Of a stretch of DNA of 64,000 nucleotides, positions 1,862 to 64,000 are shown piece by piece. This DNA comes from Hydrolagus affinis (taxonomy: Eukaryota): assembly GCA_012026655.1 (NCBI GenBank), contig JAAILG010001186.1:1-64000 (forward strand), read 5' to 3'. Below the pieces are notes generated by a model. The model saw nothing but the letters and a program-made list of their open reading frames with translations. It was not told the origin of the DNA and searched no databases. Both the position numbers and the translations under genes were made by a program. Numbering within the stretch: the stretch's first letter is position 1; each line of letters starts with the position of its first letter.

Positions 1862-2153
1862 TAATAATAATCATCATTCTTGCATTTGATACAGTGTTTT
1901 TCACGTCTTCTAGACCTCTCAAAGCACTTCACAAAATATACTATGAAGTGAATTGACTGTATATTTGTTGGTGAAATGCGGCAGCCATTTGCACACAGCA
2001 GTTTCCCACAAACAGTCGTGGATTGAAATGATCAAATTATTATTATTTTCTAGGTGTGATTATTGTAAGGAAACTTGCCCAAGGTTTCGCTCTGCCAGGA
2101 ATCGAACCCAGGTCTCTTGCTTGTAAGGCAAGCGCTCTAACCACTGAGCTACA
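1862..2153 (-). mobile_element. tRNA-derived SINE, near full length (SINE2-1_CM-like)
   Basis: Minus strand has A box TAGCTCAGTGG, B box GGTTCGATTCC, the body shared with about 10 copies in the window, and an (ATT)n tail. Confidence 0.9.
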
Positions 2154-42007: not shown

Positions 42008-42695
42008 TGTACTTGCTTTTTATATAGAGCTCTAACACATGGTTGAAATGTCTCAAAGTCCTTCACAGAACTTTTACTGTAAAGTGTAGGTACTGTGTAA
42101 TTGTAGGCGAACTAGCCAGCTGATTGTTGGCCAGGACCTTTGCACACATTTTGCATTGTGACATGGAATCTGTACAGGCAGACAAGACCTCACCTCAATT
42201 GAACAATTTACAAAATAAATAAATAATAATCCTTGCATTTGATACAACGCTTTTCAGGTCTAGGCATCCCAAAGTGCTTCACTGAATATACTGTGATGTG
42301 AATTGACTGTTAGTTTGTGGGCAAAATGCAGCAGCCAATTGAGCACAGCAGTGTCTTACAAACAGTCGTGGACTGAAGTGACCAATTTATTATTGGGTTT
42401 TTTTCTTGAGGGATTATTATTGAGGTATGCAGAGTAAGAAAACTTGCCCAAAGTTTTGCCTTGCTGGGAATCAAACCCAAGTTTCACGCTTGCAAGGTAA
42501 GTGTTCTAACCACTGAGCTACAAAAACTCCACCACTAAGCTGCAGGACTCCACAATGGGACCTCTGACAATGCAGCATTCCCCAGCATTGAGTTTCAGCC
42601 TTAGATTATGAGTAATGAGTTCAAAGTCTTGGTAGGAGGCTAGAACCTGCAACCTTCTGATTTAGAGGCAAGCATGCTAATAACTGAGCCAAGTT
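42008..42695 (-). mobile_element. Old DeuSINE interrupted by a younger SINE
   Basis: 3' part at 42008-42205; 5' tRNA-like part at 42555-42695 (CCTCTGACAATGCAGCATTCC...AACCTTCTGATTTAGAGGCAAG...AACTGAGCCA). Confidence 0.65.
42220..42552 (-). mobile_element. tRNA-derived SINE, full length, with duplicated 5' end
   Basis: Complete body; the head ends ACCACTGAGCTACAAAAACTCC-ACCACTAAGCTGCAGGACTCC. Confidence 0.9.
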
Positions 42696-51640: not shown

Positions 51641-53250
51641 CCTAAACTGCATTGTTCATTCAAACATGAGAGAAGATAAATTCCCCTGATAAAATTGAAA
51701 ATAAATCTGTTTTCATTGAATAAGATACTGCACAGTTATAAGGATCTAGGCCTTTTCACTTTATGTTCTGCTTTATTTATGCACCTTATAACATGCATAT
51801 TCTTGGACTCCCAAGGGCAGAGTTATAAGGGTGGTGCACATGTAATTTGAAACACACAAATATACTTGCACTGAATGTCACATTTGAAAAATTATAGCAT
51901 AAATCATGACTGAATTAATATTTACTTCAGTCCTGAAGTTTTCCTGCATTTTGAAGTACAACTCTGTAAACCTGATATTAAAAGTGAAGACATAAATCAT
52001 GATCAAAGCTAAACAGGCTTTTACAGCATTGACAGAAACCTGGCATTTCCGTTTCAATGAAGCAGTTATTAAATTAACATGGGCCTGTGTGTATCCATAC
52101 CAAACTACAAAGTTATTATTCTTAGACCAGTCAGTAGCATAATCACCTGCAATTGTCGTCAAGTATTTTGATCGTGAAATAAAATAAAATGCAAAGCCAA
52201 GGAGCCCCATAAACTGGAGCAGTTTTACCCCATAAATGGGATCATGTCTTTAATGCAGGCAATAACTGCAGGAATACATGAAAACAAGTAACAAAAATAT
52301 CCAATTATGCCATCAACTCTGCTACAAAAATCCAATTATCTGCAGGTCTGGCTACAGCTGCAGTAATTGGTGACCTGCACTTTTGGTCAGCAGACAATCG
52401 GGATGATGAAGGCAATTAAACACAAAGTCTACACATGCCCTGCAGAGGTTATTATGCCTGCTATATCAGACCTCATCAATTTCAAAACAAAAAAGGATGG
52501 AAGCTGCTTCCACATCTCTTCAACCATGGCTGCAACCAAAACATTAGCGAGGTGATCATAAGGTAAATTATGTCAATGGAAAGACAGACATGGACTTTGC
52601 AAAAACAGAAAGGAATAATTACAAACCCGGGATATAATTGAGCAATTTGATTGTCCTGCACTTGAGCTGTCGTTCTGATGTGAAGCGCTGTCACATCCTG
52701 CAACACTACTGGAAATGGACAGGCCCTGTCCACTTTGATCTACCCTTACGCAAATGAAATGAGGTCAAAATCTGGTCATTAGATATTCCCTCATGTGATT
52801 AAGGCGTTTCATCTTTACAGGAGATTTTTATCAGCGATCACATAGCACAAACCAACCATTAATGCTTTTGAGAAGAGAAAAATGTAAACAGGAGGCAACA
52901 AAGTGAAAAGGTGAATCTGATTGAGGAAGCATGCAATGAAGCAGCAACACCTCCCTCTGAGATAAATAGGATTTTGAAAAAAAATGTACTCGTTGAAAAG
53001 GCAAGTCAACAAAAGATCAGATCACTTAAACAAAGGGCAAACAATGGAGACAAAAACCCTTTTCATTTATATTTCACAAGGAGGAAATAAAATCTACCAT
53101 TTAGAAACTCTTGTGGTTTAGACTTTTCTAAACAATATAGGTCAAGATAGTTATTTAATGCACATTTTCCTTGTATATTTTCACTGTTTCTGTGATGATG
53201 TGCAGCAATGCAGAAAGATTTACCATCTGATCCCTTGGCTGACACCTTAC

Positions 53251-53377
53251 CGTATCATCCTTGGGTTTCACAACTTTCATAAAGGCACCCCGAGTTGTGG
53301 CTTCCTCCCGTTCTTTTCTTGTGACTTTTCTTGCATCTAAAAACTTCAGGTTTGCCAGTTTGTGAAGGATGAAACAC
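53251..53377 (-). CDS. LRMDA: LRMDA (C10orf11) next internal coding exon, 127 nt
   Basis: Acceptor TCTTCTTTTCCAG|G, donor ACG|GTAAGG. Translates (R)[42 protein letters not shown] versus recalled human [40 protein letters not shown]. Phase-2 junction AG|G joins in frame with the 63404-63543 exon. Confidence 0.95.
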
Positions 53378-53908
53378 CTGGAAAAGAAGATGCTTTGGTT
53401 GCTGGTAGAAGTTGCACGTACAGTGTAATATCTACACAAAAAGTCAGAAAGGAGGTCAATTCAACAAAGAAAAACAAACAAACCAACAAAGTAGAGATAA
53501 TGAATAGCTGAGAGACAACAAGGACTGACTGGATTCTATAACAGATACAATAGCCCTGAAGGATTAGGGCAAAAATGGCAAAAGACAAGAAATAGCAGTG
53601 GGGTCAAGGGTGAAGAGAGATAAGGCAACAGAGTCGACAGTGCAGCATAAAAGGTGTACACAAAACTCCTTCATTCACTTGAGAAAAACAGTAAACAGCT
53701 TATGCTAGAAAACAAAATTTTGGTTTCTCCAAGCATTCATGGTGTCAGCCTAGCTCATTTGGTAGCAATCTTGCCTTTAAGTCAATAGGGTGTGGGTTCA
53801 AGGTCGCTTGGCCTACACTCCAATGCAATATCTTGTCCGAGTGTTGAAAAAAAAAGGGTACTTTCTTCCAAAGCCCTGGTTAACAATTCCCCCAGGATAC
53901 TATCCTAT

Positions 53909-54282
53909 ACCTATAAGATTCTTAAGGGGTATGACAGAGTAAACAGTGGGAGACTGTTTCCCCTGGTAGGAGAAACTATAACTAGGGGGTCACAGTCTTA
54001 AGATTAAGGGTCAGCCTTTTCGAACAGAGTTGAGGAAACACTTCTTCACTCAGAGGGTAGTGAATTTATGGAATTCTCTACCCCAAAAGGCTGTAGATTT
54101 TCAGTTCTTGAACATATTCAAGAACTGAGATTGATAGATTTCTCATGGATAGAGTGGTTAAGCGATATGGGGATAAGGCGGGCAGATGGAGTTATTTTGG
54201 AAGATAAGCTGTGATCTTATTGAATGGCGGGGTAGGCTCAAGGGGCTGAATGGACTACTCCTGCTCATTTTTCTTATGTTCT
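53909..54282 (+). mobile_element. CR1 LINE 3' end, relatively young
   Basis: TYKILKGYDRVNSGRLFPLVGETITRG / HSLKIKGQPFRTELRKHFFTQRVVNLWNSLPQKAV (one frameshift), a 3' UTR ending TTCTTATGTTCT, and flanking GATACTA direct repeats. Confidence 0.92.
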
Positions 54283-54482
54283 GATACTAGGAGAAACTCC
54301 CTTCTCTTTTTGAACGGTGGCATGGGATAAAACTAGTAATTTACTTCACGGCCCTTTGTGGGACATGGCTGTGTGCATATTGGCGGGATGTTCACTTACA
54401 TATACTGTACATGAGTGGGGGATCACTGCATCTTACAATAAATTACAAAAAAGTACTTTGAGACATCCTCCAAACCTCAAAT

Positions 54483-54752
54483 AACAACAACAAAATTACA
54501 TTTGTGCAGCAGCTTTCACATCAAAAGGATGCCCAAAGATGCTGGACAGACAGTATTTTTAACCCAAGATGGACCTCCAGATTGGAGAGGGTGGATTGCA
54601 GTGGGGAAGGAGGTTGATTGAAAGCACAGTCAAAGATTGAGGGACCTGAAGGAGGCAAGAGATGGAGCAAGGCAGGATGAAGTTTCAGAAGGTGGGAGAA
54701 GATTGTTTGAAGGCCCACCTGCCAATGATGGGGTGGGCGAGGTGGGGGACGT
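54483..54752 (-). mobile_element. L2 LINE 3' end
   Basis: (CAA)n tail, AATTACATTTG, and a purine-rich antisense L2 UTR. Confidence 0.65.
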
Positions 54753-57344
54753 GAAGCGGGGGGGGGGCGCCTGCTTCACATCCAAAATAAATACCAAAGT
54801 TATTATGTATCAACAACATCAACTTGCCCTTATATAGCATCCTCCATGTAGGGGAGTGTCTCAGAGCACTTAAAATGCAAGGATACCGAATACAAGGATC
54901 ACTGTTAAGGAGTTTAAGTTGTCTAATTTAGATCAATGTGACTTCACTTGAATACAAGTCTTGTAAAATTCTGCTTAAGTACTGATTTCTCACGTTTGTT
55001 TGCCCTCCCCCCAACCACTATTGGTTATTTACTCAGTTTTATTTACCACAGCTAAGATTCAGCTTACTGGTCTTCCCTTTAGCCTCAGATTTTTTGCAAA
55101 CATAGAAAGATAATATATAATATTTAAATTTGGTTTGAAGCTATTTTCTCCATAATTTAATTGAATCAATTATTATTCTATAAGCTTTAAACTATTTTAT
55201 TAAAATACACAAAGTGCACAGCTTGAATAACTGAGTTACAGAGCCTTGGAACCTTGTTTATAGGCAGCTTGTAAACTATTTCTAATGTCTCAAGCAAGCA
55301 CTTAAGAAAAAGACAAGGATCTATTCCAAGCAGCAATTGTGAGGAAACTGCAATGCTCACTCGCAGCAGACTTAACAGCCCATAACAGATTGTTTACTGG
55401 GAGACAAATTGTGCCAACATGGTAAGATAAGTTACCTCAGTACAAACCACAAATTTAGCTTGGGTTTTTCCTAGTCAATGTAGCCCACACCGTAGAAGGC
55501 ATTTGTTCAGTGAGTTTGTCAAAGGGATAGGGTTAAATATCGCAAGGGCACATCAACTAGCAGTTAAGATGCTGGCATGGTTTGTCTAAGCAAATTTAAG
55601 CAAAATGTCTAGATCCACCTTTACAGAAGAAAATGGTAATTTCTTGCCTTAAGGGAGCTCAATAAGGAATGCAAGGTCAATGCCCTTTCCTACTGTAGGC
55701 CTAAAATGCTAGTTATTACTTTCCACGATGGTAGAAAAATCTTATCTCATTGGCAATGATTGGATCCAAAGTGAATGGAAGAGTACAAGTTTCAGAAGTC
55801 AAGTAAATCATTATTTGATTATAATGTGAATTTTTGGAAGTATATTGAAAAAACACTACACAAAGCATAGTGATTGCTTAACATCGGGCATACACATTAA
55901 ATTTGGAACATTTACAGGAGCTAAAGACTGTGAGCACTGTGGACAATTCTGGTAAATTGAAGCAGTTTTTATTGTTTTCCGAAGGGAGTGAATTGAGATA
56001 ACATTTTTTTCCAAGCCGTTTATCCCTTTTCATCAAGCTCCTGTCATTTCTACTCAGATGGGCAGTACGTACGGGTTACCATGTCCCTTTGCAGTTTACT
56101 GTTTGTACTTATGTTGGGAGCGTTCCTGATGTGGATGTCTGCTTTTGGCAGGAAGCCAGGTACATAGACAAGATCTTGAAGAATTTCTCCAGATTCAGCC
56201 TCAGTGAGTACATGATTTTGTTTGGGGATCACTAGTCTTTCACAGTGCATTGTGTCATGCTGGTCAGATGGTGGCAGGGAAAATCTATCTTCTGCCAATT
56301 CAGTGCAATTCAATATCCAGATGCAGTTTGATGAAAACCCAAGGCTTGTCCGTGTTAAGGATTGGCAGGGTCATTTTGGATGTTCAAGGAGAAAGACAGA
56401 TTGAGAACTGGCTAGAGATGAGCAATTGGATTTATTCAAATTGTTTATTTGAGTTCTCCCCCAAGTTTTAGGTAGTCTAAATCCAAATCTTAATACTGTG
56501 CGAGATGTCACCAGACAGTATCTACCTGGATAGTCAAGGAAATGGATGCCTCAAATTAAAAAAAACTGCTGGCAAAAACAACAAACAGAAACACAGAGTT
56601 GGTTGTTAAAAATTCCATGCTACTACTTGAAAAGAGATATTCTCAGTGTCCTGGCCAACTATCCACCAGATTATTTAGTTATTCACTCATGGATGTTCAA
56701 TTGTATATTTGTCTGTGTGCAAAATAGCTGTCAGGTTCACCTACAAAGAGCTGTCACTACATGTGACATTAATTGGTGTGAAGTTTGGCTCTGGTCTGTA
56801 CTGAGTCAGTTAAGGCACAAGAATTGATTTCCTAATCCTGGCATTTTATCCAAAGATTTCTCTGATAATATGAACTGTGGACTATGGGCGTGCATTTTGG
56901 ATGATCACAAAATTGCGCTTGCCTACAATGCATCCACAGATAAATACCTAACTCTCATAAAACAAAGCTTTATAACACAAGGGCCTCTTGATTATGGTAT
57001 CAGTGGATTGTCAATGCCTGTGAAAAATGAACATATTTTATAGAGTACATATGAAGAATTCACAATTTAAATGTATAATCATTTTGAATTATTTTAAAAC
57101 AAAATTATACTATTATTTAGTTACATTTACTGCCATAGCTCAAAAGTTAATCAATTTTAAATCAGATTTTTATGTTGAGGTAATTCAAATCCCCAAATTA
57201 TTCAGCACTATCAACTAACAGTTTTGAAACTGTCTGAATCCTTCCCTCTTTTGGGTATATGTTGAAGATGGGAAATTAAATTCAGTTTGTCTCAAATAAA
57301 TCTGAGCTCCACCTTATAAAAGCACAACTTATAAAGGTTGTTGA

Positions 57345-57663
57345 ATTGAAGATCCTCAACCTCATGGTCTGCAAGCCTAATATCCCACCTGCTCCCTCTG
57401 CTCAGCAAACGCATGCCTGCTGTGTGCCCCATTCTATTGGCAGGTGAGCTTCCTGCCATTTTGACTCACTGGAATTCTAACCTGGTATCCCTCCACCTTA
57501 CCCCTTCCCTTCCCTCCTTTAAGGCCCATATTAAAACTTATTTTATTCTACCGCGCTTTCAGTCATTTTCCCCACCCAGCTCACATTCCCATTTAGCTTT
57601 GTGAAGCACTTTCAGAGGTTCTCTGAATATGAACTTGTAACATAAATATAAACTGTTGCTGTT
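57345..57663 (+). mobile_element. L2 LINE 3' end
   Basis: ATTGAAGATCCTC...CTGGAATTC...CCCTCCTTTAAGGCCCATATTAAAAC...TGTGAAGCACTTT...GTTGCTGTT. Confidence 0.65.
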
Positions 57664-58689
57664 CGAGAATTTCATATGAAGATAAAGCGCAACACATGAT
57701 CCAAATACTACTGGAACAAAGGCCATGAACATTACATTGATAGTTTAAGTCTGAAACAAACAGCAGAGGCCAAAATAATGATAGCTATTACTACCATTAT
57801 GTGAAATATAAGAAGAGGAATGTTAACTTAAAAGAACATGTAAAGGCCAGTGGAGACCATCCAAATAAACAGGTTTGCGATATCTGTACACATTACAATT
57901 TTAAATAATTTGAAAATCTTCATTGTGCCTAGTTTTCCAGTACTACAACTGGCATTACGTCAAATGGAAGTGAAAGTAACTTTTGAGAATAAAAACTGGA
58001 GGAAACAGTCACATATAAAACTAGTCCACATGTCTGCAATTTCACTCCTAAAAGAGTTACTTGTAATTTCCTGTATGGCCTACCACAAGGACCCAGTGAT
58101 GGAGCTCCATAAATACCATTAAAGTTTTATGGTTTCTACATAGACCCTGTTGAAATATGTCATTACTGAAAGGTATTTCATGCTACTAATTCTAAGAGGC
58201 AGAATCCAGAAAAAGAAAAACAACATGCAGCAAGGAGTTGCTTTCTAATAGCTGCTTGTCTGATTGTCACAAATGCATGTTGACATTTATTTACAATATT
58301 TATACAGAATAAAACACATCAAGACATCAGGAAAACGCCTTGTGTCAAAAGATTTATTCCAGCACTGCCTGAGTTGGTTAATTCATACGTGGGTCCTGCA
58401 AAGAAAATTGAGTATGGGAATCAAAGAGTCCTACATTTACTTTTAAATGAAAAAGTTTCCCTTTATTTAGGAATATTTTTTTCTGATTTGAATTCTTTAA
58501 AATTATTATTCATGCCTTTCCCCCCATGAGATTGGCTGGGCACCCATGAAGACACAGGATGCAATGGCATTTCCACAGAAGAAGCCCCAAGGTACACAAG
58601 CCGTAATGAGTTGCTGCTTATAGGAACTATCAAACATTAACAATAACTTCACCATACTGAAAAAAGTAATGGACAGAAAGTTATGAATT

Positions 58690-58952
58690 CAAGCGAGAAG
58701 CCTGGATTTGATTCCCTTTAGGGGAAACCTTGGGCAAGTTTTCTTACTCCGCGTACCTGACGATAATCACTCCCCAAAACTAATAAATTGGTCACTTCAA
58801 TCCGCAACTGTGTGGGACACTGCCGTGCGCAATTGATTGCTGCGTTTTGCCCACAAATCTACAATCAATTCACTTCACAATATATTCTGTGAACCGGTTT
58901 GAGACATTTAAAAGACATGAGAAGCGCTACATTAAATGCAAGGATTATTATT
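58690..58952 (+). mobile_element. tRNA-SINE, 5'-truncated
   Basis: GAAACCTTGGGCAAGTTTTCTTACTCC...GGGACACTGCCGTGCGCAATTG...AAATGCAAGGATTATTATT. Confidence 0.9.
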
Positions 58953-59337
58953 TTAAGATAGACAAAATTGATAAGTGGCGCTTAATAAGGTAGAGGCAGC
59001 TCTGTCGTCAAAAAGCACCTAAAAATCATAGGCATCATTGTATGTTAGATATGCACTGTGACAAATGGAGATGAAAAAAGAAGATACAATTTCCTAAAAA
59101 AAAACCTAAAAGTTAAGCCGCCTACATCCTAGAGGAAAGACTGCAAGGAGGATAGAAAAAACATTAATGATCTTTGACAGCTGATGCCAAAGATGGCTCT
59201 CATGTGACTGTTATAAACCATGCTCAAATTTATAGTCCTCTCCATGATGAAGAAGCAGAATGTAGTCTAAGTGTCAAAAGAAAAAGGTTCAGCCAAGAAC
59301 TAAAAATAAGAAGTTTGGTATCACCTAACCAGGATTT

Positions 59338-59605
59338 ATTCCCCCGAATCCTCCGTTCCACCGTCAGCGGCTGTGCCTTCAGTCACTATGCCCTGTAGCT
59401 CTGGAACTCCCTCCCTCCTCATTCCCTTTGTCTCGCCCCCTCTTTTCCCATTTTCAGGTCGCGCCTGAAGACTTTTCTGTTTGACCACGCCTTCGGTCAC
59501 CTTTTCCCCCCTCCCGCTGGCTCGGCCCCCAGCTCCATTTTGTGAAGCACTCTGAGATGCTGCCTGGTGTGGAGGGCACTATATAAATCCAAGTTGTCGT
59601 TGTTG
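59338..59605 (+). mobile_element. L2 LINE 3' end with (GTT)n tail
   Basis: GTGCCTTCAGTCACTATGCCC...CTCTGGAACTCCCTCCCT...TGTGAAGCACTCTGAGATG...TATATAAATCCAAGTTGTCGTTGTT. Confidence 0.85.
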
Positions 59606-59984
59606 ACTTCATGCATCTCATCTTCTCCCCAAACCTTTGATAATCAGTTGCAATGTAGACATAGGTCACCTATATTACCATGGTTTCCCAATAAACTAAT
59701 TTGTCCATAGGTTTATGTTTAATATCCATATTAGAGAGGAAAAGACACTTGCAGAATTTGAGAAAAGGGTTGCTGGCTGCCAAGACTTAGTGCTTCAGGT
59801 CTGAGTACATAACAGCAACAACAACAACAACAAAATTACATTTGTATACCGCCTTTCACGTCGGGAGGACGTCCCAAGACACTGGAACCTCTTGGAACCT
59901 CTGAATTCTCAGATACTTTCTATCGTATTGTAAAAGTACAGGAACATCAGCTAAGCTGTCCAATAATAATACCTCCAAAAAAAA

Positions 59985-60154
59985 CACAATAATAATATTG
60001 GTCATTTCAATCCAGGATTGATTGTGGGACACTGCTGTGTGTAATTGACTGCTGCGTTTTGCCCACAAATATACAGTCAATTCACTTTACAGTATATTCT
60101 GTGAAGTGCTTTGAGACATCTAGAAGACGTGACAAGTGCTTTATTAAATGCAAG
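59985..60154 (+). mobile_element. tRNA-SINE 3' half
   Basis: TTGGTCATTTCAATCC...TGTGAAGTGCTTTGAGACATCTAGAAGACGTGA...AAATGCAAG. Confidence 0.88.
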
Positions 60155-62439
60155 CTGCTCATGGAAACCAAATCCCCTGTGCGAATACTAATCAAAGTGC
60201 ACTTGCCATCTTTGAAGACTGGTCGCTGTATTTATGATGGATGGGAACTGAGACTGAATAAGAATTATCCTTCCAAAATGATGAATCCCTAGGTTTACCT
60301 TGATGGAAATAGACCAATTCCACCAATACACTGATTATGATTTTTAAAATCCACCTCTCCCTTCCCAATCCCTGCCCAACCCTCACCTTCCTCCTTGCTT
60401 GCAATCGACTCCATCTTTGTGCTCAGAGACATAATCTTATGCTACACAACAAGTTGCACTTATATACAGCGTCCTCCACTCCGGGTAATGTCTCACAACA
60501 CTTAAATGCTATTGCCACCTCAGAGACGCAAAAACACGGCTGAGATGAAAATAATGGCCAACAATTTGAAAGCACCTCCTTATCAAACCTGTCACATCCT
60601 TTGGACACGTTACACTTCTCCTCTCAGGATTTTCCAACCTATTTCCTTGAGCACTCTGCTCCATTAATAAATAGAACTTCAATATGCAGCTTGAATAGAT
60701 ACAAATTGACACGAAAGTCAATGTATAAATGTAAATTTGTATTGTAATTAGCATTATATTAGTGGAGAAAATGGCTCTAGAAAATGAATGACAATACTGT
60801 ACCAGGGGTAAGTATAATACTGTTGTACTAATCAATACTATGAAAAACAATATTTTGGGGGAGGGGAAATGCAGCTAATTACATTCAAGGTAGAAAACGC
60901 ATGAGAGGAAACTGAAGAAAATTGAAACAAGTGAAGGGAAGACAACAGACATAATAAACTTTGACAACAAAAATATGGGAATGATGCTGATATGAGGCAA
61001 ATGTTACTCCAGGAAGGAACACACAGGCTGGTTTGTAGTGGAACTGCCTTCAGGTTGTGTACTGGTATAGGATGTCATGTTATGACTTATTGCAACGTCA
61101 AGCACTCTGAGACGCCAACCGACACGGAGGGCGCTTTATAAATGCAAGTTGTTGTTTGTTGACTTAAAAAGAGGTTGTTCAAGTGATTTTCATACGCAGC
61201 CGGAATCTGTTGAGTCAAAGACAGCAGTAGCAGCGAGGAACATCGTTTTGGGGGCATGTTTGTTAGGAATAATAAACCTATTAATAAGCAGTGTAACAGG
61301 CTGGAAACTGCTGGTCAACAAAGATCTATTTGCAAATGCCTCTGGCTTTGTTGAATTAAGAAATATTATTGTACTTTGAGGAGGTTTATGGTTTTCACCT
61401 GAAGTGAGTTACAGTACAATACCAGATTTAAAACAACCCATACATTGTGTAGTTGAAGCCTGTTAATTGGGACCCCCTGGTGTAAATGAAATAGTCCGAT
61501 TTATCAGATCATTCCCCATCAAGCAAAACCCATCAGTGCTGATTTAAATTGCGAATCAATTAGTGCCTGTGAAAATGTACCCATTAACCATTAACAGGCA
61601 TCAAGTCTAATCATACACTGGGCTTCCCTGTGCTGCTACAGAATTCAGCAATTCTGTTTGGATTGTGTTTCATCACTTTGATCTGCACTGGCCTGATGTT
61701 TTTCACATCATTTCAAAGACTACAGTGGCTAGGGATAAGACAAAAAATTATTAATTAATGAGAAAATATTTTCCTCTCATTCTCCCCATACTGTTGACAA
61801 ACTCATAGTGATTTTTAAATCCCATTCACGAGGGTTGATGAGAATCAACAGTTTTAAAGGCTCAGTGTTGTCCGGAATGTTCTGGCTTCCAGCCCTGAAA
61901 TTCATACAAACAGGAACTAGGAAATCTGCCTAAAATGTAAGGACCATTTCCAGGCCCAGAATATGATGGTTACATGGAACATAAAACCAAATACTTAAAC
62001 ATCTGCAAAAGAAAAAATAAAGTAGAAATAAATTATGAAATGACTTTTGGGATTGTAACTTGCCCAGGACAGCAGATCGTACCAGTATAGTGTTCCCTTG
62101 TCCAAAATCCAGCTAAAGTACATAAATCAAATCTGAGACATATTTTATAGCACCAAGGCAAAGCTGCATGTATGCCACTATTTGTGCTACGAATGTAGTT
62201 TATTGCCAGTGCAAATGGCAGACAGATCCTTCTTGTGTAGCCAATGATAATAGCCTGTTATGACTTGTACCTGTCAGGACTTGTAGATAAAGATTCATCT
62301 GCTATATGCCATTTCAACAACAACAAGTTGCACTTTCAGTATAAAGCTCCCTCTATGCAGGCTAGAATCTAATAGTGCTTCAAAGAATGACTCACCTCCC
62401 CTTACACAACAATGTCCTTGACTGCAATTCATTGGATAC

Positions 62440-62838
62440 AATAATAATCATTGCATTTGATATAATGTTGGGAGGATATCTCAGAGCACTTCCCGGGATT
62501 TTACTGTAAAGTGTAGTGTATATTGTGTAGGCGAATGCAGAAGCCAAGTTGAATAAAGCAACATCCTTCAAACAGCCAAGAATTGAACATTTAATTTTAT
62601 CTGGCGAGGGCACTGGGAGAATCTCCAATCTCTCTTAAGAGTAGTACCATAAATGTTTTTACGTCCAACTGAACAGGCAGACGGGCGTCAGTTTAACATC
62701 TCATCCAAAGGATAGCATGCCAACAATGCACACCCCAAGCGCTGCAATAGAGTGTCAATCTAGACGATGAGTTCAAAATCCAGTCATGGCCTTGAACACA
62801 CAATCTTTAGACTCAATTTTTAGAGTGCCACCAACTTA
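62440..62838 (-). mobile_element. Near full-length old DeuSINE (SacSINE1-like)
   Basis: Tail, Deu core (TTTACGTCCAACTGAACAGGCAGACGGGCGTCAGTTTAACATCTCATCCAAAGGA), and tRNA-like head (CTTGAACACACAATCTTTAGACTC...AGAGTGCCACCAACT). Confidence 0.8.
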
Positions 62839-63403
62839 GACAGCATGGATGTGCAGGGGCCCACTCCAATGTGTAATGTCCTTCATATACACACTTGGCT
62901 AAACTTGCATATATTGTACTTGGAAACCATTGTATGGACAGCATTGTACCAAGATCGAGCCATCACTGTACTCTAATAGATAAAATTAACGATGCTCATT
63001 TAATTCACAGTAAAAAACAGTAAATTTCTGCACCAGCTTTCCCAATGTTTCATGCACAAGCCCAGTACAGTACAGTATATTGTTTACTATTAATAGCACC
63101 AATTTTTGAATGTGCTTCTTCTGATCTATGGTTGGGTGAAACGCTATAAATATTATATCCTACTGTAAAGGTTGTCAGTTGTGTATGATTTTTTGACAGC
63201 GCTAAATGAACCATACATGCTTGCCGCTGAATGCTTTCCTTAAGTCACTCCTATTGTGTTAATGATTAATAGCTTGTGTGTTATGAACAAATGTGACTAA
63301 AAGTTGAAAACGATGAACTGGTAAGGAAGAACATTTACTTTTACACGTTTTGTCAGCAGACGAACAGAAGACACCTCGACCCATTCATAAAGAGAACACT
63401 AAC

Positions 63404-63543
63404 CTGTATCTCTGGTAGTCACTTTCATCGTTGTCCAAACTAACAAGTTCATTGGGACAGGCTTTATTTCCGAGAAGACTGAGGTACTTAAGGAAAGGCA
63501 ACACTTCAGCTAAATGATCCAAAAGGGTGTCTAATTCTGTTAT
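63404..63543 (-). CDS. LRMDA: LRMDA (C10orf11) internal coding exon, 140 nt, LRR/LRRcap region
   Basis: Reverse complement translates [46 protein letters not shown](R), close to recalled human [52 protein letters not shown]. Donor AG|GTTAGT at 63403; acceptor is ...TGACAC| (U12-type). Not in the ORF track. Confidence 0.95.
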
Positions 63544-63567
63544 GTGTCAAAGGCCATGGGTTAAGGA
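63544..63567 (-). promoter_or_regulatory. U12-type branch point and AC 3' splice site
   Basis: Minus strand reads TCCTTAAC-CCATGGCCTTTGACAC|ATA. Branch adenosines lie 18-19 nt from the exon. No AG occurs within about 60 nt upstream and there is no polypyrimidine tract. Confidence 0.85.
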
Positions 63568-64000
63568 TTCAATCACGTTAATGAAAAAGCATTTATAAGG
63601 AAGCACTCATAGGTAAAAAATTATATACATCACTGACTGACAATCAAATTTACTGCAGCACTCAAGACATGTCAAAGTTATTGTTTAGGGGGCAATTCAT
63701 AGCAAACACATGTCAGAATGTTGGCATATATTGAAAGAATGTGGCTCTTTTTAGTTTACTTTCTTTCAAAGGTGGTTCACTGAAAACATTTAAAACATTG
63801 ACAAAATGATGGATGTTGTGTGGCTAAATGGTAAGCAATTGTTGAAACTGAAACTTTTCCAACAGGAAACAAACAGCTACTTCACACTACATCCATCACT
63901 AATACATTCAGTCCATTGTAAAATGAGTCTGCAGTGTCAAACAATAACAGCCTTATTCCCCACAAGAATATAAATGCTGTCTGATAGCTCTGTGCAGTCA

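Follow-up and report, generated by a model that had tools for sequence, protein, structure and literature searches.

How an intron is removed ahead of an LRMDA exon that follows AC, and not AG, is the question raised by this locus of the chimaera Hydrolagus affinis. LRMDA is a pigmentation gene, and excerpts of the literature on oculocutaneous albinism type VII (OCA7) place its function in melanosome biogenesis. The window analysed here is a stretch of 64,000 nucleotides (bases 1-64000 of a 72,611-base contig), and the gene lies on its minus strand. The exon in question (63543-63404) begins with the Ile codon ATA and is followed by GTTAGT. Its peptide is 98% identical to LRMDA of Callorhinchus milii and 85-91% identical to shark and ray proteins, and a Pfam scan of the same peptide returned a chance match alone (Gin, E 0.14). 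On the minus strand the acceptor reads ...GAATCCTTAACCCATGGCCTTTGACAC/ATAACAGAA..., the slash marking the boundary, and the intron ends in ...TTTGACAC at 63544. The original prediction had put the exon start at this ATA, citing an intact TCCTTAAC upstream with no AG nearby and a first internal AG that breaks the frame. Coordinates and LRMDA homology agree with this start. The closest upstream AG would set the exon start at -62, and the AG at +7 inside the exon breaks the frame. Less came of the polypyrimidine tract that had been reported missing, which is a poor discriminator; pyrimidines make up 64% of the last 25 nt of the intron, branch motif counted, compared with 76% and 60% for the AG acceptors on either side.

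A U12-type donor had been expected beyond position 64000, after an exon ending in ...LNKNx. The previous LRMDA exon was located by tblastn at contig 65256-65130 (127 nt), with the terminus ...AACAAGAATCAA followed by ATATCCTTT, and the donor ATATCCTT stands at contig 65129 on the minus strand, 1,129 nt past the window end. The U12-type 5' splice site RTATCCTTT is present at the exon end, as CAA/ATATCCTTT. The upstream peptide ends in ...NKNQ, the in-frame join is NKNQ/ITELD, and the intron thus delimited measures 1,586 nt without N. The three exons on the contig (127, 140 and 127 nt) give an open frame in which 125 of 131 residues are identical to C. milii LRMDA (P0001), ungapped. The remaining LRMDA junctions seen are GT-AG, and the U2-type donor foreseen for the exon itself proved U2-like. 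Additional LRMDA exons are found on contigs C34, C7801 and C3321. The intron after the last LRMDA exon of the contig occupies window 1-53250 and exceeds 53 kb, with the next exon on contig C7801. Two tRNA-like Rfam matches on the minus strand in this long intron (window 2093-2153, 53.9 bits; 42457-42527, 29.4 bits) probably represent pseudogenes or the heads of tRNA-derived SINEs. Within the AC-ended intron, at L001:1400-1480 (contig ~64400-64480), lies a small fragment of a high-copy repeat that many unrelated contigs match in part. The coordinates of the features are collected in Table 1.

Table 1. Features of the LRMDA locus in the window (positions are those of the window unless given as contig).
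Feature	Position	Strand	Remarks
3' part of phase-0, probably U12-type AT-AC intron (1,586 nt)	63544..64000, on to contig 65129	-	donor CAA/ATATCCTTT; left out in contigs from X1 and X2
Predicted U12-type branch point sequence TCCTTAAC	63560..63567	-	predicted branch A 63562 or 63561 (intron position -19/-18)
AC 3' splice site (...GACAC/ATA)	63544..63545	-	sequence
LRMDA coding exon, 140 nt (ITELD...YQRY)	63404..63543	-	probable U12 acceptor; U2-like GTTAGT donor
Next intron, 10,026 nt, GT-AG, U2-like (GTTAGT ... TTTTCCAG)	53378..63403	-	
Next LRMDA coding exon, 127 nt	53251..53377	-	GTAAGG donor, putative back-splice donor of candidate 394-nt circle

The motifs differ in how far they exceed chance. 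TCCTTAAC is not enriched in the window, with four matches against 2.27 expected, and 23 of 100 shuffles reach four. By itself it is at chance level, and the case for a U12 intron rests on position. The motif lies inside the ~40 nt of the intron 3' end that characterise U12-type branch sites. The 72.6-kb contig has a single minus-strand copy of ATATCCTT, which stands exactly where the donor is expected from homology. Under a base-composition model, the donor at its homology-fixed place has P = 3.2e-5, the branch motif within 20 positions P = 3.8e-4 and YAC P = 0.028. The 10-kb GT-AG intron contains another minus-strand TCCTTAAC with GTATCCTT after it (54911-54879). The possibility of a recursive U12 site there was set aside, there being no AG or AC at the join. 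At this place GTATCCTTG stands 17 nt after TCCTTAAC, the join reads CG/GT and short ATCCTTG repeats surround it; the resemblance to a U12 branch site beside a U12 donor is probably due to chance. A lead to a hammerhead ribozyme in LRMDA was also discarded, as that ribozyme belongs to C10orf118; the HH10 model gave no match here, and its control was silent as well.

The genome carries snRNA genes above the Rfam cut-offs for U12 (141 bits; C39422:1986-2136), U11 (114 bits; C331:33284-33417) and U6atac, the last with three weaker matches, which are short (106-107 nt) and reach 59 bits at best (C12683:18067-18172). In silico, donor +3..+9 forms 7 bp, one of them G-U, with U11 nt 3-9, donor +4..+9 forms 6 bp with U6atac, and U12 nt 18-24 form 7 bp with the branch motif, leaving the A at -19 or -18 bulged. 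From the established biochemistry of U12 splicing, U11 would bind the donor and U12 the branch site, with this A bulging. U6atac would then take the place of U11 at the donor, and after branching the next AC in the downstream direction would serve as acceptor. The neighbouring LRMDA introns would be removed by the major spliceosome. In the available sections of Olthof et al. 2019 (PMC6717393), the optimum distance from branch A to acceptor is given as 11-13 nt, within a 40-nt window; the predicted branch A lies outside this optimum and inside the window.

The same sections (PMC6717393) state that the major spliceosome removes some of the AT-AC introns, so that the ends could be correct and the intron nevertheless of the U2-dependent AT-AC type; this is highly improbable, given that the full ATATCCTTT donor pairs with U11 and U6atac, that the branch site pairs with U12, and that the scores in the supplement to that work put the human and mouse counterparts in the minor class (in mouse, 97.9 for the 5' site and 82.0 for the branch site). 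Judging from these motifs, the chimaera intron likely depends on the minor spliceosome. Altogether, the LRMDA intron is very likely an AT-AC intron spliced by the minor (U12) spliceosome and the orthologue of the human and mouse LRMDA minor intron.

Transcript evidence comes from a run search that listed 10 runs, none recorded as RNA, of which four were compared with the locus. Runs X1 and X2 consist of assembled contigs of a relative, ~97% alike in exons (3-4 differences per exon), and their RNA nature is a guess. A joint skipping exactly 1,586 nt occurs in these two of the four runs, in one contig each, at a depth of 69 in X1 and 310 in X2. Exon bins range from 44 to 82 in X1 and from 197 to 310 in X2, against 0-8 for non-repeat intron bins. 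No joint was seen in X8 (nine raw RNA reads under another organism label) or in X3 (partial matches only). Because ATA starts both the intron and the next exon, the joint slides by 3 nt. Its four registers are AT..AC, TA..CA, AT..AT and TC..TA; no GT-AG is among them, and AT..AC is the only recognised pair of ends. The AT..AC termini are thus probably the ones used in the transcript, which the original prediction had proposed to check by junction reads; the joint was seen in contigs and in no raw read, its 3-nt ambiguity is settled by consensus alone, and the contigs are those of a close relative, guessed to be RNA.

Another explanation would leave the U12-like motifs unused and let the major spliceosome form the junction through nearby GT or GC donors and AG acceptors. 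Some basis for it exists, since database gene models with shifted junctions occur, and supplement file 6 of PMC6717393, as far as available, flags the use of cryptic 5' and 3' sites (CAT6/CAT7) near the human LRMDA minor intron in 6 of 8 tissues. Among 140 GT/GC-AG pairs near both sites in the chimaera, however, a single pair keeps the frame free of stops, and this pair relies on a poor GC donor and costs 16 conserved residues. The joint found in the contigs leaves out 1,586 nt and already corresponds to the AT-AC pair, so that this explanation has very little chance of being right. The homologues speak in the same sense. A set of 144 was examined, made up of all 32 from one search and the 120 matches listed, out of 757, in another, with eight common to both. 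In 129 of them the protein is contiguous across the junction. Five run on into 'ISF', namely two C. milii UniRef models, a crane, a parrot and a cyprinid (P0008, P0012, P0044, P0054, P0141), and three show 'IS' with one residue lost (P0053, P0073, P0120). The rest comprise one insertion, five turtle models without the upstream part and one truncated model.

The residues 'ISF' are what the ATATCCTTT donor encodes. Some automatic gene models, the two from C. milii included, thus err here by reading into the donor, and their correct junction is NKNQ/ITELD. The earlier remark that such introns are often mis-annotated finds support in these five of 144 homologues. The protein sequences alone suggest that the same donor occurs in birds and teleosts.

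Run X2 raises a further possibility. Its contig with the joint (record 9, depth 310) has 424 letters, with the upstream exon at record 125-255 and exon 63543-63404 at 256-392. Of the 124 letters before them, 28 of the 30 shown match by eye the end of the downstream exon (from window 53252), and of the 32 letters after them, 26 of the 30 shown match by eye its start (53251-53377). The three exons sum to 394 nt, and 394 + 30 = 424 is the length expected of a closed ring of 31-letter words. The place of the downstream exon in the candidate circle rests on these loose-end letters and on the length arithmetic. The head-to-tail joint coincides exactly with the GTAAGG donor at 53250 on one side and, on the other, with the AG acceptor that precedes contig 65256. 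The 424-nt contig possibly represents a closed 394-nt circle of three exons that includes the spliced U12 junction, a putative circular RNA. The length of 394 is not a multiple of 3. At the acceptor of the upstream exon the contigs of run X1 break off, as a mixture of forms would explain, though this does not demonstrate one.

Tandem duplication, exon repetition or template switching could possibly have produced the same contig, which is one contig from one run of a relative; in the genome each exon has a single match. As for flanking inverted repeats able to favour circularisation, there is one ~90-nt repeat with two inverted partners, 76-77% alike, located 11-21 kb downstream from the final exon of the circle, and this is not persuasive. 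There is roughly an even chance that chimaera LRMDA gives rise to an abundant 394-nt three-exon circular RNA, closed by major-type back-splicing and containing a spliced U12 AT-AC junction, which in one library would so far outweigh the linear message that it assembles as an unbranched ring at a depth of 310. If this holds, removal of the minor intron would extend to transcripts that end up as circles, and the slowness of minor splicing may promote the circularisation of this pigmentation gene. A literature search for circular RNA from LRMDA/C10orf11 returned one human circLRMDA of 5.2 kb and did not find the candidate 394-nt circle. The human circle is too short for the 11-kb human minor intron and is therefore another circle than the candidate. 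The candidate circle is the only part of this analysis not met in the literature searches.

The original prediction left open whether the intron had been catalogued in other vertebrates. It has: in supplement file 1 of the minor intron database MIDB (Olthof et al. 2019; PMC6717393), Lrmda/LRMDA is a minor-intron gene in mouse and human in the portion available. The donors given there are CAAATATCCTTT in mouse and CGAATATCCTTT in human, with the branch sites AGATCCTTAACC and AGATTCTTAACC, respectively. The link between the albinism gene and minor splicing, which had been drawn for the chimaera, is likewise already tabulated, as the supplement of Olthof et al. 2020 (PMC7507305), in its available part, lists LRMDA with oculocutaneous albinism type VII among minor-intron disease genes; its main text does not mention LRMDA. 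The terms splice, intron and U12 are absent from the main text of an OCA7 case series (PMC10981718). An LRMDA row is absent from the readable supplements of PMC7367187, PMC11347168 (263 species including C. milii) and PMC6865273. A full-text literature search on LRMDA/C10orf11 and the minor (U12) intron returned nothing relevant, the entry being confined to supplements.

The residue ending the exon before the junction is Q in Mus pahari, which fits CAA, and R in Pan paniscus and Cercocebus, which fits CGA. Three exon bases together with the matching residue point to the same intron position in the chimaera and in human and mouse. The intron is a conserved, catalogued minor intron that was already known, and its extension to cartilaginous fish adds little. 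Since the intron catalogued in human and mouse also occurs in a cartilaginous fish, it likely dates from the ancestor of jawed vertebrates, which lived about 450 million years ago. In unsolved cases of albinism, splice variants may escape notice in human LRMDA at the AT, at the branch site and at the AC.

Compared with the human and mouse LRMDA minor intron, the chimaera intron shares an AT-type donor, with a 12-mer identical to that of mouse, and a near-identical branch site. It differs in length, with 1,586 nt against 11,029 nt for the human intron at chr10:76036135-76047163 and 6,431 nt in mouse (PMC6717393, file 8, available portion), and the human branch site carries one change (TTCTTAAC). 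As for the candidate circle, the available sections of Guo et al. 2014 (PMC4165365) describe most exonic circles as formed by the major spliceosome from a GT donor and an AG acceptor. The candidate 394-nt circle would resemble these circles in its GT-AG closure, and would differ from them in holding an internal, already spliced U12 junction.
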